A stretch of DNA of 64,000 nt from Psammoneis japonica. Its lineage: Eukaryota. Positions 2,974 through 59,383 of the stretch are shown here, piece after piece. Location: positions 181,598 through 245,597 of the forward strand of contig QPGO01000028.1 of NCBI GenBank assembly GCA_008632985.1, written 5' to 3'. The notes beneath the pieces were generated by a model that saw only the letters and a program-made list of their open reading frames with translations, made no database searches and was not told where the DNA came from. A program made the position numbers and the translations under genes. The stretch's first letter is position 1. Each line of letters starts with the position of its first letter.

Positions 2974-3009
2974 CTCCCTCTCAACCGAAAAGAGAAGGAG
3001 AACTGTCAG

Positions 3010-9603: not shown

Positions 9604-9615
9604 GGGGTCGTAACC
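9604..9615 (-). promoter_or_regulatory. Putative primer-binding site (half-tRNA type)
   Basis: GGTTACGACCCC immediately after the 5' LTR; resembles the copia-type internal tRNA-Met PBS GGTTATGGGCCC, with mismatches. Confidence 0.5.
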
Positions 9616-19467: not shown

Positions 19468-20012
19468 TTTTGCACCAGTGCCACCTGAAAATGAGGGCTG
19501 CAATGATTGCAGTCAATTGTGTTGACACCATTGCATGGACTCAATGGACGCTTGTGTCATTTGTCAATGGCTGTGTGCCCCGCATGAGAAAAATGATTTC
19601 TGGGTCTGCGTGATTTCCTCATTTGAAAAAACCTGGGTGTGGCACCCTGGTGTTTGGCGCCAAGACTGAACGATGTGGACACCCAGTGGTGTGCAGCCAT
19701 GGTGGGGCCAGTTGGCCATGCATGTTTGGGTTCGATGTGGTGCACAACTGGCCACACCTTGCAGGAAAAGCTGGTGGCAGCAAGTGGAAGCGCGAGACAC
19801 ACGCAACACCCTGAGACCTTGCTTCAAAGCAAAAGAACACGGTGTTGGTGAAGACGTTGTACAATGACATGACAACAAGTCATGAGAAGAACCCCAACTG
19901 GGCCAAGGAACTGAGTGCATTGATGTTGTTCAGCTGCTTTGATCTTGTCTGGAAATGCCTGCTCGCAGAGTCGTGAATGGTGCTCATGTGTTGCTCGCCG
20001 TGGCGCTGTTGG

Positions 20013-20451
20013 TGCAATGTGCAGCTGCTGACAAGAGCCAATGCATCACGGCGATGTGTTGCAGCCTTTAAATGTCACAAAGGGCATGACAAAAATGACC
20101 TTTTGTCTGCATGCATGCTGCATCATGAATTCACAGCGGAGTGGTTCATCGCAACCATTGGGCAGGAGGCCAGGGGTTCGAAACCCTGAGTGGGAGTTGT
20201 CTGCAGCAACGTTGATCACTGTCGAATGCGTAAAACTCTGTGCAGTTCTGTGTGTTCCTTCGTGCGCACCCACACTGTTCCGCCAAAACCGTGCAGTGTC
20301 AGTGCATGTTAGCAAAGAGCTGCATGGACGCGTGACACATGGGGAGGAGTGCAACACACAGCTGCCAACAAGAGCCAATGTGTCACGGTGACGTGTTGCA
20401 GCCTTTAAATGTCACAAAGGGCGTGACAAAAATGACCTTTTGCCTGCATGC
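20013..20451 (+). repeat. Two direct repeats of about 100 bp enclosing a tRNA-like A-box/B-box segment
   Basis: 20013-20115 matches 20350-20451; CAGCGGAGTGG (20134-20144) and GGTTCGAAACC (20175-20185) lie between them; GGGGAGGAG precedes the second repeat. Confidence 0.6.
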
Positions 20452-23400
20452 AAACTGCAGTTGTGCTTGTCATGCTGCTGTTGCGCGTGCAGGACGAGGT
20501 GTCCATTTCACCACCAGCGACTCTTTTTTGACAACAGCAGATGTTTTGCCACATCTGATTTGCAGACATTTTGAGAAGCACTTCATGGTGACTTTGTTTG
20601 ACCGTCAAACAGTGATTTTTTTGTCCAGATTCCAGAGTTGTTTTGGGGTGTTCTGTTGGATTTTTGAGTCACCACATGTGTGCATTGGAAGCATTAAAAA
20701 TTTCAATGACATGCAAAAGCATCAAGAATGTACAAAAATTTGCATTCCCTGCAGACCGCAAAGAATGTGTGCCAGCAAAAATCCACCGCATGTCAAGCCA
20801 CTCAGCAGTGATTCCATGCATTTTCTGCTTGCACCTCACACATGCCTGCACAGTCCAATGACCGTGCACAGCATGTGCAACATGAGGATTCAAATCAAAG
20901 TTTTTCACACAAAAAAGGTGATGTCAACGAGGACACCAACCTCTGACAGCGAGTGCTTGCACACGCAAAAGAGTCGGGTGCCTGTGATGTCTTCTGTTGA
21001 GGAGGAATTTGGCACATGCTCCAATCAGCTGGATGTGCCGACATGTCATGTGACCCAGTGCTTGTCTTGACATTCAAAGACCAACCAAATCCACAGCCAA
21101 GCTGCATCCAAGAAGAGACTCTTGCGTTCATTTGAGATCTGCTGCCACCAAATGGGGAGGGGGGGTGCAGCATTTTGTGAGTTGGGAACAAAACGCCACA
21201 AGAGACCCAGCAAGCCAGCAAGAGTTTGCACCCACCTCACTCTGAAACTGACACCACACCAGCGCAGATGAAAATTTCTCATGTTTTCAGCAAAGTGTGG
21301 CCAGAAACTGTGTCTTCTTGCACCAAACCAGAGTGCTTTTGACATCTCTCCATTCACTGCCGCAGCCAGCAAACACCAACTTTTCTGGGCTGCACCTGCT
21401 TCCCAGCTGCTGCTGCACTGTCAGAGATGGCTCAATTTGTGTTGCTTCACTGCCAGGGAGAGAGAAAGAAAGAGGGAGAAAGAGCTCTGTTGACAACCAG
21501 CCAGCACAAAGACTCAGGTTGAGAGTCTCAGAGGGGGCAGAAATGCTGGTGCAGAAATGCTGCAGAATGGAGAAGATGTTGTCAATGTGCAACACTTGCA
21601 CTGCTGCCCTGGCAGCATCACAGTCTTCATTGACAGCTGCAAGACACACTCACCAAGGTTGGTCACTTGGATCAACATGGAAGCAGCAAGCCACAATGAT
21701 GTGCCAGCCCACATGGCAAGCCAGCGGGCCAACATGAAGTGCGCAAGCTGCTGACTGCTGAGGATGAATTTGCACTTCAATTTAACCTGAGACATCATCA
21801 TCTCACAATGCATCCCCACGAGTCACAAGGAGACCCTTGCAATGCAAGTGTGGTGCTCTCCAGCCTGCTGCTGTCAATGTGCGTGCATGTGCAGATTGCC
21901 ACACAAGGAAAGGCAATGAGGTCCCAGAGATGAGCTGGATGTTCCTCTGGCAGAGCTCCAGCCAACCTTCAAAAAGGGTGAAAAGATTGTTGGTTTGCTT
22001 GCTGGCCAAATGAAAGATGAGACCAAATTCTCCAAGTCAACTCACCAAGGATGACACCCAACCAGAAGCCTTGTCAGGCTCACCTGCACTGCCCTTCTCA
22101 AGGTGTTGCAAGACTTGGATGGCCTCTTTTGCTTTGTTGATGTGGCCCACACGCTGTCATCAGTGCTGTCCCACCCCCAAAAGATTTGCACTTGCTGGGA
22201 TGCCCCACAGGCATCCAACCCACTTTGTGATCTCAGAGATGGCAGGAGAGCTGACAAGACTGAGATTTGGCAAGACTCTTGCACACAAGGATGACTGGAC
22301 ATCACAAGTGCCCCCCACAGCTTGATGCAACAACCAGAGCAGGAGCACCTCATCCAGCTTTGGCAAATCAACAAGACTGTGGCCAAGCTCAGCCAGAGTG
22401 CTGACAACCTTTGCTTGGTTTGCTGTGGGATTCCCCAAAATTTCCAGGATTGCTTCCTTTTGTCATGCTCTTTTCTGCAGGGAGCATGAGTTCCAGGGGA
22501 ATTGCCATGAGCACCATTTTGTTTTGCACAAACTGTGGACATGGATGAAATGAATGAACACGCTTGAAGCTCCCCAACTTCCCCTGCATGATTTGCCATG
22601 CACAGATGCCCACCTCTCATGCAGCACATTTCTGCATCATCTGCATGCCCAGAAGCATGGAGCCACATCATGCAAGTTGTGATGGCTTTGGTCAGTCAAC
22701 AATGACACCAGTCAATCTGGTCAACAGCATTGATGGGTTGTGACCTGCAGTGCAAAAGACAAGGTGAAGCATGATGTTTTGTGTGCAAAATGCCAGCACA
22801 ACTGATTGTTGGTTTCTTGCGTGTGTTGTTTCTTAAAAAATGCAAACCACAAGGCATCTTGAGTGAAGGCCATTGTGAGTGCAGAACCTTGACATCGCAT
22901 GGTCAACAAAAAATGTGGCAGATTGGACAGTCTCATGTGTGTCACTCCCTTTGACATGTCTCATGTGCAGAGTGCAGAGGATCATTTTGTCATTCTTGCT
23001 GTGTCTTGCAGCCACAAATGTAAACCATGAGGAGTCTGGAGCAAAGGGTGAGGCCACAGATGCACTTCCAAAAGCCACAAGATCAGATGCACACAAAGAA
23101 AGAACAAGGAAAAAGTGGCAACATGAGCAACATTGGCACATTTGTCAGTCACTCCCACTCTTTGTCTGTGTCTGTTCATCTGATGTCATGTTGGTTGGGT
23201 GCAAATTGAAAAGCCTCATTTGCCCATGATGAGCAACCTTCCATCTCAGGCCACAGCACACCTCCTTTAACAACATGAGAGTCAATCCCCGCCTGACAGG
23301 GGCTGCAAAACATGGGTCAAGCTCTGCCACCCTTTGTGGCTAATTGAGAGCAGAGGTGGGCACTCTCTTTTTGGATGATGAACTTGAACATGGCAGAGAC

Positions 23401-23939
23401 CCAGGTGAATGGCAGTGCACAATGTGCATGTGTTTTGGGGGGGGGGACAAGGAGGGAGCAGAGCAGATGGCTTCATCAACATGATGCCAAGGGGCAAAGT
23501 GTGCAGCATTTCAGCCAACAAAAAGCAAGCCTTGAGTCCTTCAAATCAAGGTGCATGTTGGCAAAAATGTGCCTGGGTTGGCTGATTGTGAAGTGGCAAT
23601 GCAAACAGTCATGGCACTTTTAGCACAAGCAAGAGACACAAGCATGGAAGGATGCAGGCTCTGCTTTGCACTGTCAGCTTTGGCACACATTGCCTTTGAC
23701 CAGTCTTGGTTGAGTCAAAAGGAGAATGTTCTTGTTTGCTTTGTTCCAACACAGTGCACAAATTTGGCGCAGGCAACCAATGTTAGTGCAGGCTCGTCAA
23801 TGTGCTCAAAACTGTGCCCTGGCAAAGAGCTGAGCTCATGGCTGAAGTGGATGGCAACCCAGAAAAATGGGGAAAAAATGACTGCATGTGCTTTGTCATG
23901 TGGTGTGTGCTTTTCTGTTGCAACAGTGGTTTTGCCGCA

Positions 23940-23940
<1 letters not shown>

Positions 23941-23970
<30 letters not shown>
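23941..23970. repeat. (CTG)10 microsatellite
   Basis: Direct reading. Confidence 0.95.
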
Positions 23971-23971
<1 letters not shown>

Positions 23972-25775
23972 AGTTGATCTGGTTGCTTTTGCATGTTGTG
24001 GATGGATGAAGAATGGGGCGCGACGTTGTCATGTGAAAATGTGCATGCCTGCTCATTGAGCCAACAGCACTGCAGATCAAAATTCAGCTCATTTTTTTCA
24101 AACTCAATCCACCATCAAAGCCAACACAGCAACAAAGCAAAAAAGACAGGCTGTGCCAATGCAAAAGGCATCACATGGTGTTTGAGATGATCGCCAGCTG
24201 GCTGTTGCCTTGCTTGCCCCTGATGGCTCTGGCAGTCATGCACCTGGCTGACTGTCTGACAATGCCAGGGGTCAGACAAGATGCTGACATCAAAAAGAGT
24301 GAGAGCAAGACACAGGCAGCATTGCAGTCAATGGCTCAATGTTCAAAGTGTCCGCCCACCCAAAAAAGTGACATCAGCAAAAGCTCAAGCTGCCTTGCTC
24401 AGCCCAGAGCATTGCATGATGTCCATGGTCAATGAATCCTGTGGCAATGACGCATGATGTGGGGACAATGTTGACCCTCCCTTGTGTCTGAAACAATCAA
24501 AATGGAAGGAGTTTGTTGTGCCAAACTGCTCAGAAAATTGAGCTCTCACGTGATGGATGGTTCATCACCTGGAGCCAGAACAGGCCTGCCCAGAGCACAT
24601 TGTCAGAGCTCTGCTTTTCTCTGGGGAAGCTGTGGCAGCCATTTTGTTGCCAGCTGTGAGGCTGGGACAAAGTCAGCAGCACGGAGCTTTTTTTTTACTG
24701 GGTTTAAGAAGAAGCAGCTCTGAGAGCCAACAGCAGCAACCACAATGTCCAAAAGGGTGGGTGGCTGGTTAGATTCAGCAAAATCACCTGACAAAAACAC
24801 AGGATGCCAGGCTTCTTGCAATGAGCTCCACCAGAGATTTTGCCTGTGGAGATTTTAAGGGCCCTCCAGCTGCTGGAGAGTTGTCTTTTTGGTCACCTGG
24901 GAAGCGCACAATGGGGGTCATCGTGCCACTCAACTCCCCAGCGTTCAGAAGAAAGAAAATGCTCAGACACTGATGAGTTTTGCATGCAAAATTTGACACC
25001 GAGCTGCGTGCGCAATCCCATGCATGTGGACCTTTTCATTGGTGTCTGAGCTCTTTGTTCCTTCCAGATTGCAAGATGCTTTTGGTCAATTCAAGCCGGC
25101 TCAAAATGCTTTTTGCAAAAAGGTCAAAAAATTGACAAAATTTGCGCAATGCTGCACACCCCAGCACCTGACATCGACATCATGCTGGTGCAACTGCAAG
25201 CCAAAAAACTTTTTGAAACAAACATCCCAAAAGCAGGAAGTGAGCACCACAATGCTTCTGTTGACAAAGTCCACAACAAGGCGCGTTCCACCTCCAGGTG
25301 GGACCTTGCACTGCTGAACTGTGACATCAATGGTTTTTTGGATTGCACCACATGTCAAACACGCAGAAAGATGTGCGACTTTTTTCAAATTTTGCATCAT
25401 TTTGTGGTGCACTTGTTGAGTGATCCATCCAACAACTTTTGACATTTTTTGTTGCAGCGCAATTCTGTGATGTCTTAAAATTGCGCAGGGTGCAGGCGCA
25501 TGATTTGCAAAAATGTCGAGTGGCAAGAGGCACAATTGCACCCCTGTGCAAGTGCTTCCATGGGATGCAGGTGGGTGTGGTGTGTGATGACATCATCACA
25601 TGCATTGAGTTGCACATGTTGACATTTGCGCTGATGCTCACATGTCATTGAGCAACAGCTCCCATCCCATGGCACCCCCAATTCTCTGGCCACGAAACAC
25701 TGGGGGCAAGAGTTGACCATTTTTCACCCATTCTCACACAGTGCAAACAACGTGTGTCACATCAACTCCACCATG

Positions 25776-28700
25776 ACAATGTCTCCTCCTTCATCTCCAA
25801 CGTACACTGACAATGCTGCCCATCCCTTTGGTGACTCCACCATGCCCATCATGGATGACAATGCCATTGCTCCAGCTGTCGTGACCCAACCACACCAGAT
25901 GCATTGCGGTCCGGAAGATGTCAACCATTTTTCTCCCGATCCAGTGCCTTTCGTGCAGTCTCAAGGCCAAAGTTGTTCCACCCCGGTTGTTGCATTGCCT
26001 GAACAACTTTCTTTGAAGCACTTGCATGAAGTCATGTTCGGCGATGTTGAACAGGGGCTGGAGTGCAGAAGTTTGCAACTTTGTGCAACAAAAAAGAAAC
26101 AAAAGACAAAGTGTGTGGTCAAGGTGGTGCTCAATCCCTCCACCATGCTCTCTTTTCTCCACAACCCCACTGTCAACGAGTCCATTTCTTTGGGGTCTTT
26201 CTTGCCTCCTGACACTCCCAACCTTGTCAAACAGGCAATGCACAATTTTGACATAAAGCAACAACCTTGGCCTCAGAAACAAAGCAATGCAAATGACAAG
26301 AAGATGTGCAGTGCTTCCAGGCCCCCACCAGCACCATCTGGATCCACCAAGTGCCCCCCTTGTCATGACAAATGGAGCAAGGCAATCCCTCACGTTTCTT
26401 GGGACTCACCTGTGCTGCAAGATCTTCTCACCTGCCACTGTCAACGGTTGCTTTTGGAGGATGTCCTTCGGCTGCCGGTCAGCTTGGACATTGCACTGTG
26501 GATTTCTTCTGCCCATCCTGCTTTTTCATTGACATGGAAACCGTTGCTTGACACAGTTTGTGCTTCGGCACCTTCGTCTGCTGTTTGCATCAGCAAAGAG
26601 CACTTCTGCATGGTTCAAGCTGCAATTGCCAAAATCCAGAACAACAAAAACTCATTGGTGGTGGTGAATTGTCAGCCAGCGATGTGCAACACCTTTGCAC
26701 TGAAAGTGGTGGTGATGCAGTTGCAATCGCTCCTGTGGCTGCGGCATCTTCTGGTTGCAAAATCAAGCACTGCAATTTGTTTTATCATGGGGCAACCTTT
26801 CACGTTTGGGTGGCGCAGCCATGCAACAACCACCCAAAATTGCAGTTGGAAAATGTGCCTGATGCAAACTGACGTGCCGCCATGTTCCAGTGCTGCATGC
26901 GGGAGCCATGGGGTGATGGCCATGCCGTGCATTTGTTGTGTTGTGAGCATGACATCTTAATCCAGAAAGACAAGGAGGATGAGGAGCGCAAACATTGCAA
27001 AAATGCCGAGATGTCAACGGAATGGATTCGCAAATTGTTCGCCATTGATCCGAAGGCTCCCAACTTCCAAGCCTTCTGCGCTTTTGTGGAGGGCACCTGT
27101 GAGCAGGCGATTTGTGTGTGTTTTGGACACTTCACCCATTTGACGTCTCCCATTCTCATGCAGGCTGTGGTCCAGGAAATGGCAAAATGGTTTTGCAAAA
27201 CTGTGCCACAACACTGTGTTGTGTTGAGCACCCTGTTGAGCTGTGAGATGCACCAGTGCAACACCAGGAAGCAGCATCTCCTGCCTCTTTGAGATCGCTT
27301 TGTTTTGTGCATCTTCATGTCCATCATGCACATCTGCAATCCATGCTTGTTTTCCTGGTGGGCATGCTGCAACACTGTGGCGTCGCGTGAGTTGTTGGAC
27401 TCAACATCTTGATCAAAGCTTTCTGTGTGTTTCAGTCAGGCCACCATTCAACAAACTCTCCTGCGCAAGTGTCATCCATTTTTGAACTGTGCAATGGCAA
27501 TGGCCTCCACCAACCAAACATTGAAGGGCTCTGGCAACTTTGGCGTTGCCATTTTTGACAATTCCCAGGTGCACATCAACCAATGTGTTGCCTGCATTGA
27601 TGCATTTGTCTCTCACGCCACTTTTCTTCTTACTTCCATTTTGGGTGGTTGAGTCTCTTAAGTGCCAATGTGGGTGCCAATCCTTGACGGTTGCAAAGAC
27701 TGTGTCACACATGTTCATCAAGCCATGTGTGCTGCCCAAGTTTCATTTGTGTCCGACCGCACTTTCTCTGAAGCCCAAAACCACCATGTGGGTCACTGCA
27801 TTCCATCTCCCTTTGGCATGCCTGCTTGCAAGCTGCAGGACTCTTTGTTGCGTGCCGATGCTTCCATTCTGGACTTTCACAACTCCAACGAGTTCTTGGA
27901 ATCCGCTGACAGCATGGGTGTTAGAGTGTCTTGGCATGCCTCACTTGTAATCCTCGCAACAAGTGCCCACTTGCACCACCAGTGCATTCCGCACAAAGGC
28001 GTTGTCTTCCAATTTCAGCATGAGTGCAGAAAAGAGACCATGCAGCAAATTGGTGGGGCATGCCTTCACATGTCTCTGCACTCATTCCTCCTGTGTCATG
28101 TGAGAATTGAGACCATGAGCAAAGGTGCCGGCAAGGTTGCACTTGGATTGATGCAGCTCTTCAACATCTTAGAAGCAACGTTGTCCAAAGGGGTTTCAGG
28201 TGATTCCATCAAGGATCTTTGCCTTGGTGACGGATGCCAGAATCATCACTTGATGACAGTTGGTGATGGCCTGTCGCAAATGTGTGTGAAGGCATTTTGC
28301 ACTCTCATCCAAATGTCTGCCTGCAGCCACATTGACCACCATGTTGCTGCAGGAGTCTTTGAAAAAGCCATGGAACAAGTGATCAATGCGACAGGAGATC
28401 TGCATGGCAGTGGCTTCCATTTCCTTGGGGCTGTTTGTGCGCTGTTCTGTGGGTTGCTGCTGCAGCCGTTTCAGGCGGTGCTTGGGTGGAAGTGGATGCA
28501 AGGTGCAGATGTGATGAAGTGCCATCAACAGGCCGCTGGAATGGCTGTAATGACACTTTCGGGAATCAAGCATCAACTCTTTTTGATGGTTTGGGTGCAC
28601 GTGTGAAACACGGATGAGCTGCAAAGCAGGTGGATGGCTTTGTCAGATGCTGGAGAGCATTCCATGTTCACAGCATGTGAGCACAAGCACTGCTGGGTGG

Positions 28701-28800
28701 ACATTCGGATCAAGGTTGGCTCCGACAAAGTGCATCACATGTCGCTGCCATTCATGATGCTCATGTGTCACTGTCATTTGTTTCAGCATTTGGTTTGATG
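25776..28800 (+). pseudogene. Putative Academ/DUF6589-like transposase relic
   Basis: Frameshifted ORFs containing GVAIFDNSQ, HVRIETMS, TVGDGLSQ and TGDLHGSGFHFL, the acidic and GxLH motif pattern I associate with this family. Confidence 0.55.
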
Positions 28801-28811
28801 TGGCAATGCCG

Positions 28812-29698
28812 TCATGAGGAAACAATCCGGCCAGTGCAAGTTGCAGTCATGAGTGGGAAGGGCATTGAAGCGATGGATGGCAGGTGAGTGAAAAAGCATT
28901 GGGGCAGCTCCTTGAATTTGGAATGAAAGGACAGACCAAAGCTGACAAAAAGATGGACTTCATCAAGAGCAACAAGCCGCAGCAGACCCTGGTGTGCAGT
29001 TGAGAGAAGGAATTGCAACAGCTCTTCAGTGGCGACAATCAACTGAGGCAAGGCAAACAGGAATGTGGGCCCATGAACCGGCACCATCCGTTGCTGCAAC
29101 CGGCCCATCCTGTCAAAAAAACATTTCATGTGATTTGAATTTTTAGATGTTTTGTCCAAATGAAATGATGTGACCGGGCCATGTTGTTGTTGTTGTTGTG
29201 TGGCTCTTGTCATAATTTTGCAGCATTGATCCAAACCAAGGGACAAAAGAAGGACAATGGCAAGGATTGCGCCATGGCGGCAGACGCCGACGATGTCACG
29301 GACAAGGGATTTGCCACCTCCTGTGGGGCGCACTGGCAACAATGGCTGGGCTTGTTGATTTTGCATTGAAAAAAGTGGTTTGGAGCCAACCTCAACCTGC
29401 CACCTGAAAGGTTGCTTGCCAAAGACATCAACAGAGACATCGATGAAGGTTTGGGAGAATGTTGTGGGTGGCTTTGTAGAGGTTGCGCAGATGCATTGTC
29501 TGTGTGAGGCATTGCAGCAGCTGAAAAACGGTGCAAGTTGTTGCAGTGTAACACCAGCAATGATGCACTCTTGACAGTGCTAAAAACCACATCACCTGAT
29601 TCAGCAGATCCATTGTGGTTGGCACCAATGGGACTCGCATCAGGGGATGGCATTGACGATGCTCGCTCGACATCATCATGGAAAGTTGTTGTTGACAT
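28812..29698 (-). pseudogene. RecQ-like SF2 helicase N-terminal half, truncated
   Basis: PTGGGKS (motif I), LLSLGLDQ (Ia), LVALDEVH..GLSF (motif II plus RecQ aromatic loop), MTAT (motif III). Confidence 0.85.
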
Positions 29699-30414
29699 GT
29701 GTCATTTGTGTGTTGTGCAAGAGGCGAAAAATGGTCAACTCCTTCCCTCAGTGTTTGGTGGCCAGAGAATTGGGGGAGAGCATGGATCAGGATTTTCCCT
29801 GGTGCTGTGAGCATTTGTGCACAAATGCTTGATTTTGTCAAATGACAGCAAATGAGATTTTTGATGATGTCTAAATTGCATCACCATGCCATCACATCCA
29901 TGCTCTTCCCTTGCACAGGGGTGGCACAATTGCACCACAAACTTGGTTGTTCATTTGATGTTGAAGACAAATGTGTCCATCAACTAAATTCTTGCACTGC
30001 AGAGCTCACACGTAGAATTCTGTGGGCCCAATGTCACACGGAGTCCCACCCAGGACTGGAGCCCATCACAGCAAACATCAAAACAGATGGAAACAACATG
30101 GCAGAATTGACTCTTGCCATGAGCACAAAGAAACACCCAACAACCTGCCAGCTGGACCTTCAAAATCTGCTCCAACTGCAATCAACCATGGCACGCCAAC
30201 TCTGGTTGTTCCAACTGTTGTCTCATGTTCTCATTGATGTGCAAGATTGGACTGTGCATCAAAATCTTGTCCAAATGCAATGCAGCAAATGCAGTCCAGC
30301 CGCCATGTTCCCTCTTGTGGCAAAAGTGCAGTGCTTTTTCGAAATTTCTTGATTTGCGAAAAAGCGTCTTGAAATCTGGGAGGGAGTCAGAGGTCGGAGT
30401 TGTCCCAATTGAAA

Positions 30415-30640
30415 CACACAGTGTTGGTTGATGACAACCCATTGGGTTTTTTGGCTGATCCTGAGAATGGCACACCGGTGTTGAGTTTTTACGACGATGC
30501 ACGTGACACGATGTCACCGGCCATCCTGAATTTGTCACATGAACCAGATCAAGAACGTGACATCCAGCCAACGTTACATTCACAGTTCCGTCTCCATCAT
30601 GCATTGAATGATTTGTTGAATGGTCATCCATTTGCGGGAT
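30415..30640 (+). pseudogene. Captured C-terminal fragment of an FCP1/SCP (NIF) phosphatase gene
   Basis: TVLVDDNPLGFLADPENGTPVLSFYDDARDT..LNL..DIQPTL matches the NIF C-terminus; no upstream DxDxT motif; begins right after a repeat end. Confidence 0.7.
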
Positions 30641-32449
30641 GGGATCAACAAATTGACAACACTCAACAACATCAACAACAAAAGGCAGAACAACAACATC
30701 AACGAAATGTCATGGACAACGAAGAACCACAACAAGAACTTGCAGTCACTGCATCGTGAGACTGGCTGGACTTTCCCTGGTTCTTTCATTCCATCCTCCT
30801 TCTTCTTGCACCTGTTGTCTCTCTTTTGCAACAACATTTTTCTTTTGCCAGGAATGCCTTCTTTGCGCAGCATTCCAACACTGTTGCAAGCTGCCACTGC
30901 TGCACACTGCTTCACTGGCCTTCTTGTGTCATCTGCTGCACACACTGCATGCCTGGCACATTGTTCTAAGTTTCATTCCTTTTTTGACGTCTCATTGCTG
31001 TGATGGCCAGCGTTCCTGTTTTGCAGACAGTGGAGGACACCAGTCGCACATCTGTGTGACGGTGACACAATGTGAGGTTCCCAAATCATTGCTGCAGAGG
31101 ATGGGCACCAGTGAGAAATGCAAAAGCGACATTGGTGTCACGTCACTTGTGTTGCTTTTGCACCAACACTTCATCAGCACCACAATGAAAACAGTTTCTG
31201 CAGGCGAAAATGTGGCGCACTGGTGCAGGACAGGCGATGAACAAAAAAGCAACTTCTTGTAAAAAAGATTTTGCAATGACAAAAAAGATGACAATGAAAA
31301 TGGTTTCTGCAGGGACACTCTTGGTGCCAGTGCAGTTGTGTTTGCATCTGCCTCCATCGTTGACAACGACAATGATCAACCATTTTGCAATGATTGGTTG
31401 AAACAACACAAATGTGGTGCATTGCATGCAATGCACAGATCAATGTGCGTTTGCGTGCAGCGACAATGCAGCGGCGTTGAGATCACTGCAACTGTCAATC
31501 TGTCAAATGTTGAGTGAAAGTGATGGGTGATCAAACAACCATGGAGGATCCTGTTGGGGATGTGCTCCTTCTGGATGGATGAAAAGAGCTTTCAGACACC
31601 TTGCGCTGTCCATTGCAACAGTCTTGGGATGTTGTTCCACAAGAAAGACTGACTCTGGATCTCCAAAGGAGTCCAGGAAGGCAGAAATCTGCTCAAAAGA
31701 GACAAACCGCTGTTGCAGTGGTGCAAAATTCAACATTGCAAGGGAACCAGGCAGTGCAGTGGGGTTGAATGCAACACATGGACATGCGTGTGGCAAGTGC
31801 ACATGTCAAGCAGGAACAGACGGGATGCATGACTGAAGACAGTCATGGATGTCAGAGAGTGGGCACAATGTTGACATCCAAGGTGAGTCATTCATGGACT
31901 CATGAACAGGAAAGTGAAGTGGAAGATGCAGTGTTTGGTGTGCAATCAAATCCACTCAGCTCCCTGAAGGGGTGCCAGGTCCAGTCAACAGAAAGAGACA
32001 AATTTGTGGTTGTGCAAATGAGTGTCTGTCAGTCTGTCCTGATCCTCATTCCTTCCAATGCACACATCATTGTTGTCCAGGAATCAACAAAACTGCAGTG
32101 TGCCAGTTGCCAATGACAATTGACCAAACCAACTTCGAAGTCAAGGCAAAAGACACTTCAGAGTGAACCGGGGTGAGATGTGGCCAGAGCAAAAACAACC
32201 CCAAGTGTGACAATGCTGGGTTGCAAATGACATGGCAAATGGACACATGTCCCCCAATGGTCAATTCAGGGTGGTCTTGGTGAAAAGTTCAAAATGGATC
32301 TGTGTGATGTTGAGTTGTGCAGAAATGTGCTGCGCACTCATTGCACAGATTTCTGTGTGACATAAAATCATCTGCACACTTTCAGACCTCCACACTCCCA
32401 AATGCACACATGCAGACCTCTGCACTCCCAAATGCATGCTGGGGAGTAG

Positions 32450-33245
32450 ACTGCCCCCCAGCATTCGGGAGTGCAGAGGTCTGCATGCATGGACATGATT
32501 TTACATTGCGCAGAAATCTGCACAATTGACGAGCAGCACATTTCTGCACAATGTCTCTTGCAAACTGTGACCTCCAACTCCCTCCCAGATTTCAAGATGC
32601 TTTTTCGCAAATCAAGCCATTTCGAAAAAACACCGTACTTTCACCACGAGAGGGAACATGGCAGCTGGATTGCATTTGCCGCATCATGTTTGGACAAGAT
32701 TTTGATGCGCAATCTGATCTCATGCATCAATTGTGACATGACACAGTCGTTGGAACGACCGGAATCAGCACTCTGGTTGTTTCGTTCACGTTTTTGTGAT
32801 TGATGCACCATGGCCATGGTCGACCGCAGTTGGTGCTGGTGGCAAGAGTCAATTTCCATTTGTTGCTTCCATCTGATTTGGTGCTTGATGATGCTGAAAC
32901 AGTCAACAGAAGCATCACGGTGCTCACTTCCTTTTGTGATGTTTGTTTTAGCAAGTTTTTTGGCTTGCGGTTGCATCAGCATGACGTCGACGTCAGGTGC
33001 TAAGTTGCACAGCATTGTGCAAATTTTGTCAATTTTTCCACCTTTTTGCAAAAAGCATTTTTTGCCGGCTTGAATCGACCAAAAGTGTCTTGAAATCTGG
33101 GAGGAAGAAAGAGCTCAGACACTGATGCCAAGGTCTGCACACATGGGGTCACGCATGCAGACCTCGGCATTAAATTTTATGCATGTGAAATTCGTCAGTG
33201 TCTGAGCATTTTCTTTCTTCCAAATGCTGGGGAGTGGGGAGTGGA
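32450..33245. mobile_element. Shorter inverted copy of the 24925-30400 non-autonomous element
   Basis: Reverse-complement alignment to 24940-25265 and 30075-30400; ends carry the CCCCAGCATT/AATGCTGGGG inverted motif. Confidence 0.65.
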
Positions 33246-33420
33246 CATCTTCCGCAAATGCTGCAATGTTCAATGGACGATCAATGGTCATGCATCATTG
33301 CATGCACGCGGCTCACGGCTCTCATGGTGACAAAATGCTGAAAGATTGCCAAAAAGCAAGACAGTGTAAAAGCAAACGAAGTCATCCACCATCAAGCACT
33401 GCGTTCCTCCCATTGATGTC

Positions 33421-35373
33421 ATGAATGGAGAGCTTGACAACACCGTCACGCCACAACGGGGCAGCCATGTTGAGAAAAACATTGTCAGCAGAAACAAGCA
33501 AGTTGCAGAAGATGCACTCAACAAACATGATGCTTCTCCCAGTTCCACCCCGCCCACCCCTGAACAAGAGCCTGACAGTCCAGGCACGGTGAAACAGGTG
33601 TTGGATGAAAGAGAAGCCCATGAGCAGTTTGAAAAGGAGTGCAACTCTTGCAATCATGGCTGTCATGGGCCACCAAGCATTCCCAGTGATGACAACACAA
33701 CAAACAACCAGAACACTGTTGCTGAAGAGGTCGCGTTGGCTGAGAAGAGGGGAGTTGGAAAGCACAGTGGCTGTTGGAAGGCAAAACGGCATGCAGCAGG
33801 GAAAGCTGCAAATTGGATTAAAATCTCTGATGTGTTGCAAGACACACCCCACATGAAAGGCGTGGCTCAAAAATGTGCTGCAATTGATGAGGAAACGATG
33901 CTGCCAGAGGCACCTCACATGAATGACTCTGATGAAGGTGTTGAAGATTTTGATGAAGGAAAGAAAAATGATCAAGAGTTGCACTTTGATGCAACCTGTC
34001 TTGCTTCTGCACAAAAGGAGTTTTGTGATGCTCTTCCAAATGATGAGATGAAGAGAAAGTGCCCACAAAGTCTTCAGATTGAAAAGCAGAAAGTGGAGCA
34101 TGAGAGAAAGAATTGTCAGATTGCAGAGCAGAAAGCGGCTGTTTGCGAAGAATTGTGAAATGCAAAGGATGCGGAAGAAACACTCGAGAAGCACAGAAAA
34201 GCAGAGAGTCAAGCCATGGAGTTTTTGATGGATGCTGACCCAATTGTTTGTGATCCAGCATCCCTCACCAACACATGCCAGCATGCATTGGATGACGAAA
34301 AAGATTTCTCAGCCACGTTTGACAGAGAATCATTGAAGAAGTCATTTGATGTGACAAAAAGCACAAGTTGCTGCTCCAAGTGAGTGGTGCACATGCTGCG
34401 GCTTTCAAATCAACTGCAAATTTCATGACATGAGGCCATTGCAATGGCAATGTGGGGGGACACAGGAAGCATGTGCAGTGGATGGTCAAAACTCTCCATC
34501 GTGTGTTCAGAGAAGCAAGAGAGAGTTGTGGCTGCCATCCTTCCTGCAAAGATCTCTTCTTCCCTGGTCCAACCAGCCAAGAAGTGGAAGGCGTCCAACC
34601 GGTTTTCAAGGTGCTGCTCAAAGCAATCAGGGATTGTGTTGTCAAGTCGCATGTGATGGTGTGACAAATCCATCCTTGCCAATGACCATTGGTGTGTCGG
34701 AGCAGAAGGAGTTGTGCAGAACAAAAAATTGATGAGGGCATTGCTGTGATCTTTCAATTTGGAAATGCGGGAGGCACGTTGTTGCACTTTTAGCTGGTCT
34801 GATGGAGCTGACGTGCAAGATCAAACCAGGACAGTGCACTGACAAGACAGTGCCAGATCTGGCACAAGAAGGAAAGGACCAGGGTCTTAGCCATGCAGCA
34901 CTTTGCTGATGGTGCTGGTGTTCCATCATGTGCCACATCTGTGTCAGGTTTGCTGACTCACATCAAGATCAACCAACTTGTCCTCAAGGATCCTGGGAAG
35001 CCCTCTTCTTGTGTGGAGTCACACTCATCTGGACCATTGTCGCTGTTGCCAAAGGAGTGTTTTGATGCATGGCATCAATCAGAAGGCAAGCCACAACATC
35101 AAGAGGCTGTGGATGGCATGGCAAAAATTTTGCATGGAACAAGCAACAAAGGGGTGGATGAAATGGGCATTCCTCTTGGCATCAAAGCTGCACAAACCAT
35201 GATGATGTGTCCTCGTCATTTGCTCATTGGTCCAAGTTGGAGTCAAGTTTCAGAATTGCTGGGAGAAATGCTTGGTGCGGGTGCATTCGGAATGGTCTTT
35301 GCTGTCAACGGAAGTGAAGAAGCTGCAGTCAAATTGTCCAAACCCGGCCTGCATCATCACATCTCACGAGAGT
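33421..35373 (+). pseudogene. 5' part of a protein kinase pseudogene (coiled coil, linker, kinase subdomains I-III)
   Basis: LGAGAFGMVF (Gly loop), AAVK and ISRE run up to the TSD; several stops upstream. Confidence 0.7.
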
Positions 35374-35715
35374 TGACAGAAATTGAAGGCAAATGGCAAG
35401 AATTCAAACAATGACTCCTTGCTGCTGTCTAAATGGCAGATGAGTCTCCGCTCAGAGACCGTTGCAGGAGCCGAAAGACGTGTAAGTCGGTGCAATCGGG
35501 CTGCTGTTGTCATTCTTGTGAGCCTTGTGGCTCGAAAGCAAACTACATCGCGCGCGAACGCGCGGAACTAAAGCACACAAAACTGTGCACGGTAAACTAA
35601 ACAGCGCGCGATGTTTCGCGCGCACCTGAATCCTGTTCAAATCCTGTCACTCCCCAGTTTGCTTGAGGAGTCACAGAAACAGATTCGACTTTGGATTGAC
35701 CAAAGAACTTTGGAG

Positions 35716-35900
35716 TCAAAGCACCAAAACATGAGGAGACAAGAAAGGATCAAGATCCAAGAGCAACGTTGCATTCTCCAAGTGGGTCATCTTGAGATGA
35801 GCTGTGTCTCCCCAATTGCAGATGCCGTTGTGCCTTTTAAAGCTCAAGGCACACTTGGGATCTGGTGGGATTCCGCACTTGCAATGGAAGGAGCAAAGCT
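35716..35900 (-). pseudogene. Remnant of the region at the RT N-terminus
   Basis: CKCGIPPDPKCALSFKRHNGICNWGDTAHLKM resembles the YKYG..P....AL..D..NGN..W..A...EM motif of diatom Copia pol. Confidence 0.55.
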
Positions 35901-36129
35901 TGGGCTGGTTGACAATGTTGAACGGTGGGGCAACATTGCAGGCGGCATGGCGTTTGCACGACTCGGGGAACAGAGCAAGCATCAGTTCAAAGGCACAAGC
36001 GGTGGTCTTGTGTTCCACCAATCCGACTGCATCTCCTGAGAGACTGATCCAATTGGAGAAACGAGTCTCAAGGTGCAAGCCTTTGGGGATCGGATTGGAG
36101 CAAGACATCTTGTGGTGCAAGGCTGCAGA

Positions 36130-37025
36130 TGTCTGATTGGGGCAACCAGTCCCGTGCTGCAAGACTTCTGGGATCCAAAAGGACTTGCCAGTCTTGTGAC
36201 ACGAGTCTTCGGGGATCCAATCAGGAGGCCAAGTCTTGAGGTGCGAGACTTGGGGGATCCAATCAGGAGGCCGAGTCTCATTGCACAGGACTTGAGGGAT
36301 CCAATCCGGAGGCCGAGTCTTGAGGTGTGAGACGTGGAGGATCCAATTGGGAGGCCCGGTCTTGAGGCACGAGACGTGGAGAGTCCAGTTGGGAGGCCTG
36401 GTCTCAAGGCACCAGACTTGGGGCATCCGATCAGGAGGCCCAGTCTCGATGTACGACACTTGGGGCATCCAATCAGGAGGCCCAGTCTCGAGGCATCCAA
36501 TCAGGAGGCCTGGTCTCGAGGTGCGAGACTTGGGACATCCAATCAGGAGACCTGGTCTCGAGGTACGAGACTTGGGGCATCCAATCAGGAGGCCCAGTCT
36601 CGAGGTGTGAGACTTGAGGCATCCAATCAGGAGGCCTGGTCTCGAGGTACGAGACTTGGGGCATCCAATCAGGAGGCCCAGTCTTGAGGTACGAGACTTG
36701 GGGCATCCAATCAGGAGGCCCAGTCTCGAGGTACGAGACTTGAGGCATCCAATCAGGAGGCCTGGTCTCAAGGTACGAGACTTGAGGCTTCCAATCAGGA
36801 GACCTGGTCTCAAGGTGCGAGACTTGGGGCATCCAATCAGGAGGCCTGGTCTCGAGGTGCGAGACTTGGGGCATCCAATCAGGAGGCCCAGTCTCGAGGT
36901 ACGAGACTTGAGGCATCCAATCAGGAGGCCTGGTCTCGAGGTGCGAGACTTGAGGCATCCAATCAGGAGGCCCAGTCTCAAGGTACGAGACTTGAGGCAT
37001 CTAATCAGGAGGCCTGGTCTCATGG
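36130..37025. repeat. 42-bp tandem minisatellite, about 20 units, degenerating leftwards
   Basis: Unit GGGGCATCCAATCAGGAGGCCCAGTCTCGAGGTACGAGACTT; gives 14-aa periodic ORFs in all frames. Confidence 0.95.
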
Positions 37026-37858
37026 TGCGATGCTTGGAGGATCCGAAGACAACAAAGCTGCTTGGATGTCCTGAACTCCCCATCTGATGAACCGGTTGAA
37101 CTGTTGTGAACAGATTCAATGATGGGAAAAGGAGGCTCCCCATCAGGAGATACGAGAAGCAAGTTGTCACCTCCATCACTACTCAAACGAAGACTGTGAA
37201 GGGTGACAGCGGTCGACACGTGGAGGTTGGCAGCACGTGGTTTGCGGGGTGCAAAGACTGCAGCTTTGGAAGCCATGGGTGGAGTGTCCCAACTGGTCTT
37301 GAAGTGCGGGCCTGTGCAAGGGCTGCAATCCTGCACTGGGCCGAGGTTGCTTGCAGGCGGGTTGGTCAAGACATGCGGGGCGCGACTGACACCACTTCTG
37401 GGGGACACCTGAGTGGCGGCACAGTGCAAGGCTGGTGTCAAAATGGCACTGGGTTCATCTGGTTTGGATGGCAAGGGACTCAGCACAGGTGCGGAGGGTG
37501 CTGCGCCAGTGGCCAGAGAGGTCAAGTAGTCTGGACCAAGGCGGCAGTTGCGAAATTCCTCGGGTGTGAGCAACTGGGGTTCATTGGTCACATCATCACC
37601 GTTGCAAACTTTGACAAAGTAGAAGCTGATCAAGGCTGCTAGGAGGTTTCTGTGGGTCCGTGGCAAAGGCACTGCATTGGCGCCGTCTCTGTGAGTGAGG
37701 GCATCAATTTGGGTGGGTGAGAACGTGAACAATTCCTCGCACGATTCAATCCCATTGATGGACAGGGCAGAACGAAGAGGGCTGTCATCGTCTTGATTGA
37801 GCACAGTGCCTAGAATGTATTTGAAGCTTTCGGTTTGTTGCTGTCGCGTGAGAACCAT
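37001..37858 (-). pseudogene. Gag-like N-terminal ORF of LTR element 2
   Basis: MVLTRQQQTESFKYILGTVLNQDDDSPLRSALSINGI..IDAL resembles diatom Copia Gag N-termini; lies downstream of the PBS. Confidence 0.6.
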
Positions 37859-38800
37859 GACGGAGGACGGTGCAGTAGAAACAAAAGACAGGAACCAATC
37901 TAGAGCGCGATCTTGACTCGGAGTTTTGACTTGGAACTTGGCTTGAAGAAGACTTGACTTGAGCCAGACTTGACTTGAAATCTTGGACCATCTTAAAATC
38001 AGAAGTCGCTGGGCTGTGCCACCCCGTTCGTTGTTGAGTGCTAAACTTCCCATCCGGTCCGTAGAGTTGTGCCGGCACGTCCGAACCCGCAGCCAGTGGC
38101 GCTTTGGGTTGCTTACGAGCGGAGCAGCGGGTTGTAAACCCCTGCAGGTGAGCTGACTGGAGGTGGACAAGACCCCCGAACCGTTCTTATTTTATGTCGG
38201 TTGGATTTCCCGATCAGGCTGGCCAGTTGACGCAGGCGTTGGGCGCTGTGGACGAACGAACAAACGCGGGAAAAACACCCTCGCCCCAACGTAGGCTGTA
38301 ATCACGGCTGCTTGCTCTCACAGTTGTCCTCGTGGACCTGGTGGAACTGCAAAGCACCAGCAGTCCGGGGTGGATCTGGTGCAATGGACTCGGTGTGCTT
38401 GCAGAGTGGCAGCAAAACCGCAGTCCGAAGAGTGGGCACAAGTTCTTGGCCGTGAAGATGTGCACACACACATGTGTCTTTAGCGACGAAGATCCTTGAA
38501 CATGTGGGGTTCTTGACCGTCAACCAATGAATGGGTACATCAAGGGATGAGGATCAAGGATGGACTTGGACATGACCGTTGAATGCATGTCTTCAGCAAT
38601 CAAAGGTGGCACAACCAATCCAGACATCCAGCGGTGAGGAGACTTGACGGTGACGTTAACTTCCTGCCGATGCCCTGGTGTTGAACGCGCGTGGACTTGC
38701 CGATGTATGTAGAATGTGTGCGGAGGTCCACGCAGAATTGAAACAGCGTCGTTGGTAAATCAACGACGACGATGGCGGTTGCTCAATGGGTTGACAATGA

Positions 38801-38815
38801 GCAAGACTGTTAATC
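38801..38815 (-). promoter_or_regulatory. Primer-binding site complementary to a tRNA-Asn(GUU)-like anticodon arm
   Basis: Plus strand reads GACT-GTT-AATC abutting the 5' LTR. Confidence 0.6.
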
Positions 38816-39096
38816 TGACAGAAATTGAAGGCAAATGGCAAGAATTCAAACAATGACTCCTCACTGCTGTCTAAATGGCAGATGAGTCTCCGCTCAGAGA
38901 CCGTTGCAGGAGCCGAAAGACGTGCAAGTCGGTGTGATCGGGCTACTGTCATTGTTCTTGTGAGCCTTGTGGCTCGAAAGCAAACTACATCGCGCACGAA
39001 CGCGCGGAACTGAAGCACACAAAACTGTGCACGGTAAACCAAACAGCGCGCGATGTTTCACGCGCACCTAAATCCTGTTCAAATCCTGTCAAGAGT

Positions 39097-39920
39097 CCGC
39101 CATTTTGAAGCTGTTGTCAGAGAAGGATGACATTCCTGAGAACATGCCACTTTTCATCAGGTCTGGGCTCTTAGAGGCTGACATTGGGGGTGTGACGTTT
39201 CAATTGCCTGCACTTGAAATGCAACCTTGGTGTCGCAACATCTGCAGTTTGTGCTCAAAGGGATCAGACGATGAACGCATTGCCCTCATGAAGTGCACAC
39301 TCAATGGCACTTTGTGTGCTCTAAAATTTGTCCATGGTCTTGATGTCTGCCACCTTGGTGTCAATGAAGCAGACATCCATTTGCAAAAAAATGTGCAAAA
39401 TGAATGGAGTGCTGCACTTGCGGATTTCAGTGTTGCTCGACCTGTGCACAAGAAAGTCACAGGCTTTGTGGGAACCCCTGACTTCGTTCATCATGAGGTT
39501 CACGTGAATCATGAATGGACTTCTGTCAAAGAGCTTGACAAGAGAAGCCTTGGTTTTACAATGGTTGTGCTTCTTGAGGGTGGTGTCATTCTGTGGAAGG
39601 GCTTGAATGACAAAGGTCTGCGGGACCGCAACGCCTCCTCAGTGCACCAGGAGTGCATCAAGCAGGCAAAGTGTTGTTTGTCACAAAAGAAACTTGACAA
39701 GAATTTGTCAAATCAAATCCAGAACCTGTTCATCAAGGATGAAGCACAGCTCCAAAGGGCTTGTGGCAGCAAAACCAAGTGTGACTCAAGAAGGTGTGAC
39801 TGCTCCAAGAAGGGGCATGGTTGCTCTGTTTTGTGTGCGTGTTGTGATGATCAGAAAAAAATCCCTGTGCCTTGGCCCTTGCTGGTGCAAGAGTCTGATT
39901 CCTTCAAGTGTGCCACTTGA
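39097..39920 (+). pseudogene. 3' part of the kinase pseudogene, with a C-terminal Cys-rich (CXC-like) tail
   Basis: Removing the element and one TSD restores the frame (ISRE-SAILKLL); HLGV..I (catalytic loop, Asp lost), LADFS (DFG), GTPDF; CGSKTKCDSRRCDC..CSVLCAC. Confidence 0.8.
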
Positions 39921-56169: not shown

Positions 56170-57027
56170 ACAGAAAAGCCAACGGCTCTGCAGTGACATC
56201 TCTGATGGCAAAGCAATGTCTTGATGTTTTTTGAGATGTGGTGATTTCAAGTTCCCAGTGCTGAGCTGCACCATTTGATGACTGGTCTTGCATGACGTCT
56301 TTGTCTGCTCCTTGCATGACTGGCCAATTGCAAGCCAGAGGAGTTGTTCTGTCACCAGCATAAATGAAGCCACAAAGAAGAAAACATGTGAGCACCTCTG
56401 CTTCTCACCCCCACTCTTGGAGCATCGCACTGAGCTTTCCAACCTGTGAGCGATGGAACTGAGGCTTTTTCCATTGCCTCTGTCAGCCTCCCAGCCTCCA
56501 TTGTGTGTGAAGACAATGCTGCATGGCTCCGATTTGCATGCAAGCCAAAACCATCCCCACAAACTGAGCACACAGGATTTCTGCACCACTGGTCTCACAC
56601 CAAAGTTGAGGTGCTCCAGAGATCAAGATTGAGCCTGTCAACTCTGCTGCACAGCTTGCCAGCCAACTCACCAAAGGTTCAGGTGCTGATCCATTTTGCA
56701 TTGGTCGTAAAGCCCTCATGGGCTGGTGATGCCAGTTTTGCTCTTTTCGGTTGAGAGGGAGAGTCTCGAGTCTGATCCACAGATGATGCTCCACTTGATT
56801 GCATGTTGGCAACAGCAATGGGGATGACACTGGCAACTGTTGGGTCAGAATGTCATCTCCAGTCAACCATAAGATCTTCTCACAATTTTTGTCTTTAAGA
56901 GCATGTCATTGTCTTCTGATGCATTGACAATCCTCTGTCTTACACTTTGCAACCTGCTGAAGAGAGTCTCCGCTGCTGAAGAGAGTCTCCGCTCTCCCCA
57001 GTCACCGTGACTTGTTGTGTCCCAAGT
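56170..57027 (+). mobile_element. 3' remnant of a Copia related to element 1 (RNase H, PPT, 3' LTR 56762-57027)
   Basis: LPASIVCEDNAA..IKIEPV.SAAQLA..GRKALMGW*, same PPT CGGTTGAGAGGGAG, LTR AGTC...TCCCAAGT. Confidence 0.85.
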
Positions 57028-57578
57028 GGTGCGACTGTGGCAAAGGGTCAGTTTGCCATCGAATCACAAGACAGCAATCGGAAAGCCACATCTGTGCCGC
57101 CCATAAATTGGAAACCAAGGAGGATTTTGAGAAAGCACAGTGGGTGCGGCAATGGCATGAACAAGCAAGAAAGCAGTGCAGCTGCTGTTTGTGCCGTCTC
57201 CACTAGAGAGGACTCTCTACAGTAGAGAGAGGTGAAACGCCACATGCTCGAATCTGTGCATGCATCAAAGTTTTCTGTGTGCGTTTTACATTCTCTCGAT
57301 CTAGCCAAACCTTTCTGCAAGAGAGAAAGAACCAATGCGTTGAGGTTTGGTGGTGGCATCTTATTGTCCAAATGCGTGGATCTTGAAGCTTTAATCAATC
57401 GACAGTGTGTTGAGATGCGAGAATACACTGAACGAGCCAGCAAGAAACGGTTTCGACAATATTAAAGCAAAATTTATGAGAACAACCTCTTTACATCAGA
57501 ACAAAAATGGCCTCTGCTGTTCTATTCGACGGTTATAAGTTCTACCTTTCATTTGTTTGTACTCAGCGCCGTCCTTTT

Positions 57579-58951: not shown

Positions 58952-59172
58952 GATGATGCAGTGATTAAGAAGAACTTGTCGTTGTACCTTGTGTTTGAAA
59001 AGATCGCTAATTTTCAAAATTGTGAGAACTTTCAGAAGAGATTTCTCCGTGTTATTTCAGTCGCGCATGGGCACTGACTCAACCGAATTTTCAGACAAAA
59101 GGAATTCTTGGAATTTTGGTTGCTGACGTGGATGGTGGTGTGGAGTGCTTTTCTATTCGCCAATGCAAATGG

Positions 59173-59314
59173 AGCAGACGCTGAAGAATTCTGCCTCATT
59201 CTCAGACGTGCACGACACACATCAATTCCATGGAATACGTACGCACGCACATAGAAACTCGGCTAGAGCAGACGTTGAAGAATTCTGCTTCATTCTCAGA
59301 CGTGTACGACACAC
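59173..59314. repeat. Direct duplication of about 48 bp in the divergent promoter between the CP12-like and K+ channel genes
   Basis: AGCAGACG(C/T)TGAAGAATTCTGC(C/T)TCATTCTCAGACGTG(C/T)ACGACACAC occurs twice. Confidence 0.85.
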
Positions 59315-59383
59315 GCGCCGACTGACGCACATCCTTGTTCTGGGTTCCTCACAAAATACCTCAGCTCTTTTCTCACCAACACA

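Follow-up and report, generated by a model that had tools for sequence, protein, structure and literature searches.

In a 64,000-nucleotide stretch of Psammoneis japonica DNA (contig QPGO01000028.1, positions 181,598 to 245,597; hereafter the window), an element bounded by long terminal repeats (LTRs) at 35374..39091, here called element 2, has very probably been hit after its insertion by a regionally confined hypermutation of TpA to TpG or CpA, with a slower loss of CpG. The context of the changes, their direction, their confinement to certain regions and their relative rates are all shown here. Element 2 has two LTRs of 276 bp each, both on the minus strand (35374..35649, which would be the 3′ LTR in minus-strand orientation, and 38816..39091), which align without gaps, end in TG..CA, and are bordered by a perfect 5-bp target-site duplication, AGAGT (left copy 35369..35373, right copy 39092..39096). 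The element plus one copy of the duplication measures 3723 bp (3 x 1241), so the kinase-like frame that it splits would be continuous across the empty site. The LTR ends, the duplication and this continuous empty-site frame establish a genuine LTR-element insertion.

Between the two LTRs 15 nucleotides differ, forming 11 sites, and all the differences are transitions. Three sites show TA in one copy and TG in the other, two show TA versus CA, four TG versus CA, and two CG versus CA, with no other class present. The sequence-only reading of this DNA had counted the same 11 sites (five of TA versus TG or CA, four of TG versus CA and two of CG versus CA), and realignment of the two LTRs matched that count to the letter. 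It had also remarked that many CGs are intact, and we found 19 CpG kept in both copies. The same states appear in a 42-bp tandem repeat array within element 2 (36062..37103), whose units alternate between CCTGG and CCCAG and between GTACG, GTGCG and GCACG, and encode 14-residue units in either long frame. Two columns of the array hold CG, TG or CA and a third holds TA, TG or CA, which is the network of states seen in the LTRs. The array was also tried as a tool for polarizing the changes and set aside, since the ancestor is not inferable from its units.

The pattern is shared by an unrelated family. Element 1 (2686..9903, minus strand) is a Ty1/copia retrotransposon, as indicated by an RVT_2 domain (E 2.6e-33) downstream of an integrase SH3-like domain (SH3_retrovirus), by LTRs of 288 bp (2686-2973 and 9616-9903), and by a perfect 5-bp target duplication, GGAAG (2681-2685 and 9904-9908). 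Its LTRs differ at 12 nucleotides, again by transitions only and within the same network of states, including four TG/CA double differences. When the two pairs are taken together, all 27 differing nucleotides fall within the 278 nucleotides that belong to pyrimidine-purine (YpR) steps and none within the other 286 (Fisher p 2.6e-9). Steps that hold TA differ in 7 of 11 cases and steps that hold CG in 4 of 35 (p 0.0014), in line with the earlier proposal that TpA is the faster target. The naive LTR divergence is 5.4% for element 2 and 4.2% for element 1, while outside YpR steps it is 0/132 and 0/154, respectively. With a background of zero, LTR dating is inflated in both elements, as the sequence-only reading had warned. 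That reading had also staked its case on the TA rate staying above background when more pairs are included. In 25 alignments of dispersed repeats within the window (6383 aligned nucleotides; 577 transitions and 251 transversions), TA was the least conserved dinucleotide (0.465), followed by CG (0.646), with all others at 0.70-0.83. The commonest double change in these repeats was between CA and TG (67), the next between AC and GT (21), and only 3 were between CG and TA.

The direction of change was examined with three independent kinds of comparison, which identify TA as the ancestral state and TG and CA as its products. The first used the reverse transcriptase (RT)-RNaseH part of element 1 (3010-4662, minus strand), aligned with 63 of 120 listed homologs (P0121-P0183), among which 272 columns showed at least 80% agreement. 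Element 1 departs from the homologs in 47 of these columns. When neighboring bases are taken into account, a single TA>TG/CA step accounts for 20 departures, a CG>TG/CA step for 4 and some other single transition for 3, while the remaining 20 involve something other than one transition. All 10 conserved tyrosines have been lost, to five cysteines (TGY), four histidines (CAY) and one tryptophan (TGG). By comparison, the conserved columns lost none of 16 aspartates, none of 13 prolines, none of 5 cysteines and one of 20 glycines. A LanC-like host gene, compared as a control with 60 of 120 listed homologs, departs in 6 of 123 conserved columns, none of them by TA>TG/CA or CG>TG/CA, and keeps 5 of 6 tyrosines.

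The second comparison is a dispersed repeat present in two states. An unconverted copy (13532..13928, plus strand) lies within a 500-bp island of normal composition, and a copy in DNA almost free of TpA is preserved in two parts (25279..25542 and 29923..30075, both plus strand). From the former to the latter, 25 of 30 TA changed to TG (13) or CA (12), 3 were unchanged, and 2 changed otherwise; 16 of 28 CG became TG or CA and 9 stayed. In reverse, no TG or CA became TA, and one TG became CG.

The third comparison used other copies of element 2, represented by depth-weighted contigs of one study (run X1), in which 155 of 170 variable places were transitions. Of 40 variable places examined, 33 were YpR transitions. 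The family majority has TA where this copy has TG or CA at 10 of the 33 and the reverse at 3; likewise, CG is the majority state against TG or CA in this copy at 5 places, and a single place shows the opposite. At four TG steps both positions are variable. The open reading frame (ORF) of element 2 was considered for a tyrosine test of its own and rejected, its N-terminal module being too weakly conserved.

These comparisons contradict the explanation that only cytosines are deaminated, by decay of methylated CpG or by C>T at CpG or CpA of the kind made by repeat-induced point mutation (RIP), with TG versus CA arising from an ancestral CG struck on opposite strands in the two LTRs and TA as the end product. 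Several observations speak for it: CG does differ from CA or TG at 4 of the 35 CG-bearing LTR steps, one column of the 42-bp array has CG beside TG and CA, CpG is depleted in converted DNA, and the majority state is CA or histidine at three family places and one ORF column in which this copy carries TA. However, TA is destroyed in converted DNA (observed/expected ratio, O/E, 0.05), the conserved tyrosine codons have gone to TGY, CAY or TGG in 10 of 10 cases, and the two-state repeat shows no change of TG or CA to TA against 25 in the other direction. An origin from CG also predicts 0.06 opposite TG/CA pairs, against the 8 that are seen. We therefore consider the cytosine-only explanation hardly credible. 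The interpretation given in the sequence-only reading is thus supported, and the direction from TA to TG or CA is added to it here.

If TpA decays in opposite directions in the two LTRs, TG-versus-CA double differences result, and the LTR pairs can then be used to estimate rates. We modeled each ancestral TpA in the 564 bp of both pairs as subject to loss with probability p in either LTR, independently of the other LTR, and with an equal chance of becoming TG or CA. The visible classes are 4 of TA in both copies, 7 of TA in one copy, and 8 of TG versus CA, where the model expects 2.2, 10.5 and 6.2. The joint fit gives p = 0.70 (95% interval 0.54-0.83; chi2 3.1, P 0.078) and implies about 25 ancestral TpA in the 564 bp (4.5% of dinucleotides), a proportion that is not unusual. 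The fitted p agrees with the loss of all conserved tyrosines in element 1 and with its 72% TA deficit, in that its TA O/E is 0.17 and CG O/E 0.86, whereas host genes have a TA O/E of about 0.6. Expressed as substitutions per step and LTR copy, the rates are 1.21 for TA and 0.063 for CG, a ratio of about 19. Relative to the upper bound for non-YpR sites (0/286), the TA rate is higher by a factor of at least 230, and CG>TG/CA in the LTRs runs about 12 times or more above background. Homogeneous decay estimated from surviving TA only was tried and rejected in favor of the joint fit, as it under-predicts the TG/CA pairs.

The composition of the window, profiled in 500-bp bins, shows where the process has acted. 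As a whole the window has a TpA O/E of 0.23, a CpG O/E of 0.57 and a CA/TG O/E of about 1.55, but these values are the average of two states. Converted blocks make up 31,268 of the 64,000 bases (1-2000, 11001-13500, 14001-15500, 19501-35373, 39092-43000, 47001-47500, 52501-57000 and 63001-64000); in them TA O/E is 0-0.1, CG O/E is 0.03-0.5 and at times up to 0.76 per bin, and TG plus CA account for 0.9-0.99 of pyrimidine-purine steps. Normal blocks, which carry recognizable host genes (LanC-like, K-channel, Abhydrolase_2, CP12 and HA-domain genes), have TA O/E of 0.4-0.96 and CG O/E of 0.8-1.2. The young elements 1 and 2 stand at TA O/E 0.17 and 0.23 and CG O/E 0.86 and 0.68, and the 3166-bp interior of element 2 (35650..38815, minus strand) at 0.21 and 0.61. 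The switch between the converted and normal states takes place within one bin. The largest fully converted block, 19501..35373 (TA O/E 0-0.14, CG 0.03-0.76 per 500 bp), is the target into which element 2 was inserted, and both halves of the interrupted kinase-like frame on the plus strand are fully converted. The upstream half (34812..35373) has TA O/E 0.03 and CG 0.24, and the downstream half, with the Pkinase domain (39092..39920), has 0.05 and 0.29; neither has a tyrosine codon. The Pkinase match (E 4.7e-07, 29.9 bits) is slightly below the curated Pfam cut-off of 31.7 bits.

A genome-wide neutral bias against TpA and CpG could in principle give such a picture, if the converted blocks were old, unconstrained DNA at equilibrium and genes were kept from it by selection. 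The converted blocks are indeed unannotatable and look dead, and the recognizable host genes do sit in normal blocks. Non-coding stretches of the normal blocks, however, retain TA O/E of 0.5-0.78 and CG O/E of 0.87-1.0 (for example, 0.78 and 0.87 in the 628-bp spacer 61114-61741), and in three host genes TA stays at about 0.5-0.7 of its expected frequency whichever codon phase is considered, including the largely synonymous phases 2-3 and 3-1. This argues for regional targeting, and not for protein selection against a genome-wide bias. The block boundaries that fall within 500 bp, the unconverted non-coding island at 13501-14000 amid converted DNA, and the LTRs that are already short of about 70% of their TpA with 0/286 changes outside YpR steps also speak against it, and we regard the neutral explanation as highly improbable. 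The normal block 57001..63000, with CP12, K channel and LanC-like genes and non-coding spacers, serves as an internal control. Accordingly, the genome-level framing of the sequence-only reading holds for the inflated LTR dating, but not for the genome as a whole: the process is found in sharply bounded blocks and mobile elements, whereas host genes and spacers have ordinary TpA and CpG.

The targets that can be named in the window are the two LTR elements and the dispersed repeat. Most of the converted DNA has no recognizable origin, the kinase-like domain being the only one found in it, and 19 frames scanned in the converted 20-34 kb region gave no Pfam match. Blocks that are 86% identical to each other (16-19 kb and 44-46.5 kb) are unconverted, and thus duplication alone is not the trigger. 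TAA and TAG together occur at 2.9 per 1000 positions in converted DNA against 15.4 in normal DNA; because these stops are lost, long stop-free frames in converted DNA are no evidence of function. Six such long frames have no tyrosine codon or just one. The minus-strand frame of element 1 (3010-9492) runs for 2160 codons without a stop, 459 consecutive bases of N (4663-5121) included, and has 15 tyrosine codons in 2008. It is stop-free and yet has lost all 10 conserved tyrosines of its RT, so here an intact ORF is no sign of an active element.

Element 2 belongs to a very abundant family, as judged from contig depth that piles up to about 265,000 and 244,000 over its LTRs and 4,000-136,000 inside, compared with about 60 in the unique flanks. 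With this depth over the LTRs, it could be argued that their differences were imported from the thousands of other family members, through ectopic gene conversion or through assembly and polishing with reads that came from those members, and that the spectrum is the polymorphism of the family. The family variation is in fact dominated by transitions and includes TG/CA double variants, and site 35628 is polymorphic within the family. Import would nevertheless merely shift the same mutational process to the level of the family, and it leaves unexplained the block-scale composition, the tyrosine loss of the copia element, the two-state repeat, and the same pattern in LTR pair 1, which belongs to an unrelated family. 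As the whole explanation, import is unlikely.

Hypermutation of TpA after insertion thus remains the reading that we prefer, and several points weigh against it. The sample is narrow, being 64 kb of one genome. A fit from surviving TA only gives p = 0.47 and predicts 1.6 opposite TG/CA pairs against 8 seen; this excess calls either for a p of about 0.7 or for a subset of especially mutable TpA, and heterogeneity among TpA sites is possible. The polarity within element 2 itself is weak, depending on depth-weighted contigs and 40 of the 170 variable places, and its ORF shows one conserved tyrosine changed to histidine (CAC) but also one conserved histidine changed to tyrosine. At least one of the differing sites, 35628, is polymorphic (A in 57% of the family), and, given thousands of paralogs, some of the LTR differences could stem from conversion between copies or from an assembly polished with reads that belong elsewhere in the family. 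CpG loss accompanies TpA loss here, while the hypermutated regions of the chlorarachniophyte Bigelowiella natans, discussed below, have almost no GC>AT change. The chemistry of TpA loss is entirely inferred, and the lineage of the host is deduced from the named relatives of one gene and from two domains.

In the sequence of events that we propose, a non-autonomous element of very high copy number inserted, with a 5-bp duplication, into a kinase-like pseudogene that was already converted. After insertion, TpA was changed to TpG or CpA (A>G or T>C) on both strands equally, with about 70% of TpA steps lost independently in each LTR. The loss of CpG (C>T on either strand) was slower by a factor of about 19 and has its simplest explanation in methylated CpG that decays where DNA is silenced, and the remaining LTR sites underwent no measurable change. 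The agent may be an enzyme that deaminates the adenine of TpA in DNA flagged as mobile or silenced, as has been proposed for B. natans, and we infer that the hypermutation acts as a genome defense. The signature and its targeting would be the same under a different chemistry, in which T>C results when the thymine of TpA, after modification (e.g., hydroxymethylation) or damage in silenced DNA, pairs wrongly with G. TpA is self-complementary, so T>C and A>G on the other strand should be indistinguishable by sequence, and TA>TG and TA>CA are about equal (13 versus 12 in the two-state repeat; five cysteines versus four histidines in the copia RT). However, nothing in the sequence points to thymine modification in this lineage, and the sole experimental study of the signature favors an ADAT2-like adenine deaminase, itself unproven (bioRxiv 10.64898/2026.01.13.699255). 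We consider thymine chemistry unlikely. A dinoflagellate origin of the DNA, with hydroxymethyl-uracil at TpA, was considered and rejected: the spliced-leader motif had no match even with 3 mismatches allowed, and the LanC-like protein has diatoms as its named relatives.

The closest known system is that of B. natans. In mutation-accumulation lines of this alga, 231 of 302 nuclear mutations lay in two integrated viral regions, and all but one of them (230 of 231) were A>G or T>C changes at TpA, which arose at about 6e-7 per site per generation and were confined to some of the lines (Mettrop et al., bioRxiv 10.64898/2026.01.13.699255, 14 April 2026). The same source describes 124 genomic clusters of TpA-poor, CpA- and TpG-rich windows enriched in RT and DDE domains, and its authors propose an ADAT2-like DNA adenine deaminase; its text contains none of the words diatom, LTR, retrotransposon and CpG. 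Like that process, the one described here changes TpA to TpG or CpA on both strands (20 of 27 single-transition departures in the RT, 25 of 30 TA in the repeat). Both are confined to regions, with a contrast of orders of magnitude to the rest of the genome reported for B. natans and a bimodal 500-bp profile with normal genes and spacers in our 64 kb, and both leave TpA-poor, CpA- and TpG-rich stretches that are mostly unannotatable, those of B. natans being enriched in RT and DDE domains. Unlike B. natans, the host here looks diatom-like, the demonstrated targets are LTR retrotransposons and a repeat instead of giant-virus and virophage inserts, and conversion is far more complete, covering about half of the window with TA O/E of about 0.05, compared with 0.45 in the region of nucleocytoplasmic large DNA virus (NCLDV) origin. 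The B. natans rate was measured in mutation-accumulation lines, while the process here is read from sequence alone. The two also differ in GC>AT change, almost absent there and present here as CG>TG/CA at 4 of 35 LTR steps and 16 of 28 CG of the two-state repeat; the slower CpG loss may be a separate process. We place the two in the same kind of process, with the other lineage, the LTR retrotransposons, the higher completeness and the accompanying CpG loss as what is new here. We found no report of TpA hypermutation or of a RIP-like process in diatoms in the open-access literature searched.

Other systems resemble this one in part. RIP, a mutational genome defense of fungi, is triggered by duplication, changes C to T mainly at CpA, and creates TpA. 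Like RIP, the process here loads mobile DNA with transitions that depend on the dinucleotide and makes divergence look larger than it is; unlike RIP, it destroys TpA and leaves duplicated blocks (16-19 kb and 44-46.5 kb) unconverted. RIP of the fungal type was rejected on these grounds, with TpA O/E falling to 0.05, no TG/CA>TA events, and duplicated normal blocks untouched. Decay of methylated CpG in silenced transposons resembles the CG>TG/CA changes in the LTRs and the CpG O/E of 0.03-0.5 in old converted blocks, but it covers 4 of 19 differing LTR sites and none of the TpA loss. APOBEC3 and ADAR of animals, which like RIP are taken up in the discussion of the B. natans preprint, edit cDNA or RNA at a stage that precedes integration, ADAR with a preference for A that follows U. 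They share with the present case deaminase-type, context-dependent transitions in mobile or viral nucleic acid, but would leave both LTRs identical, whereas here the two LTRs of one insertion have diverged and DNA other than retroelements has been converted too.

Element 2 is best read as a non-autonomous LTR element, because no reverse transcriptase, integrase or protease was found in it (Pfam searches of both long minus-strand frames gave no match). No primer site of the TGG type was recognized. A purine run at 35650-35660 (GGGGAG on the minus strand) adjoins the left LTR and resembles a polypurine tract, so that a minus-strand orientation of the element is probable. The probable coding part of its ORF, starting from Met112 of frame 37001-38191, is 37001..37858 (minus strand) and contains a conserved N-terminal module, recognized in an exhaustive search: residues ~112-250 align with the N-terminal ends of 110 unannotated proteins at E<=1e-3 (3 of them at E<=1e-10; best E 7.9e-15). 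Twelve of these relatives have no Pfam family. The protein search gave no relatives of comparable length for the ORF, and the ORF showed no similarity to the gag region of element 1, the LTRs of which have non-canonical ends (AC..CT, not TG..CA).

Several other features of the window were observed. The segments 10135-19000 and 41756-46640 form a diverged segmental duplication, 76-90% identical in pieces and with HA-domain frames, of which the HA-bearing parts are normal in both copies and the parts at 11-13.5 kb and 42-43 kb converted in both. The 500-bp normal island at 13501-14000 (TA O/E 0.76, CG 1.22) is non-coding and surrounded by fully converted DNA; it may have been inserted too recently to have been hit. 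The converted copy of the 13532-13928 repeat is split by a 4.4-kb gap, which contains a fully converted 4.1-kb insert bracketed by 54-bp inverted repeats (25675-25728 and 29723-29776, 91% identical). Long frames in this insert (25635-26960 and 27662-28606) had no Pfam match, and it may be a DNA transposon with terminal inverted repeats. Palindromes of about 240 and 115 bp, 72-85% identical to their own reverse complements, occur in converted DNA at 32315-32551 and 41447-41559. At 62986-63999 (minus strand), a stop-free frame of 337 codons without a tyrosine codon adjoins the normal LanC-like gene, and the composition switches within about 500 bp at 63000.

Host genes in the window are single uninterrupted frames. 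The LanC-like protein has no near-identical entry in the protein collection searched, its best match being 55% identical. Those of its 120 listed relatives that carry a name are diatoms (Seminavis, Amphora, Cylindrotheca, Cyclotella, Thalassiosira and Epithemia), except for two arthropod entries (a mite and a midge). HA domains, which are expanded in diatoms, occur in the window. Two adjacent frames with CP12 domains (57579-58712, minus strand; E 2.7e-05 and 6.9e-13) point to a photosynthetic host. The Protein Atlas gave no finer lineage than eukaryote. Together these features suggest that the host is a diatom-like alga and not B. natans.

In genomes with such a process, LTR dating, repeat landscapes based on Kimura distances, and neutral rates taken from repeats would be badly inflated, and gene calling would be misled by the long false open reading frames that converted DNA gives. 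Young, partly converted LTR elements would in turn be natural time points for studying the context preference of the enzyme. If a second, unrelated algal lineage has TpA-specific hypermutation, it is not a curiosity of one species but a candidate for a broad genome defense comparable to RIP. A bolder and rather doubtful extension is that the TpA-erasing system is an old and widespread genome defense of algae of the stramenopile-alveolate-rhizarian (SAR) group, acting at genome scale on LTR retrotransposons here, in which one deaminase would remove A in TpA fast and C in CpG slowly. Were that so, silenced DNA in these organisms would end up written only in TG and CA.

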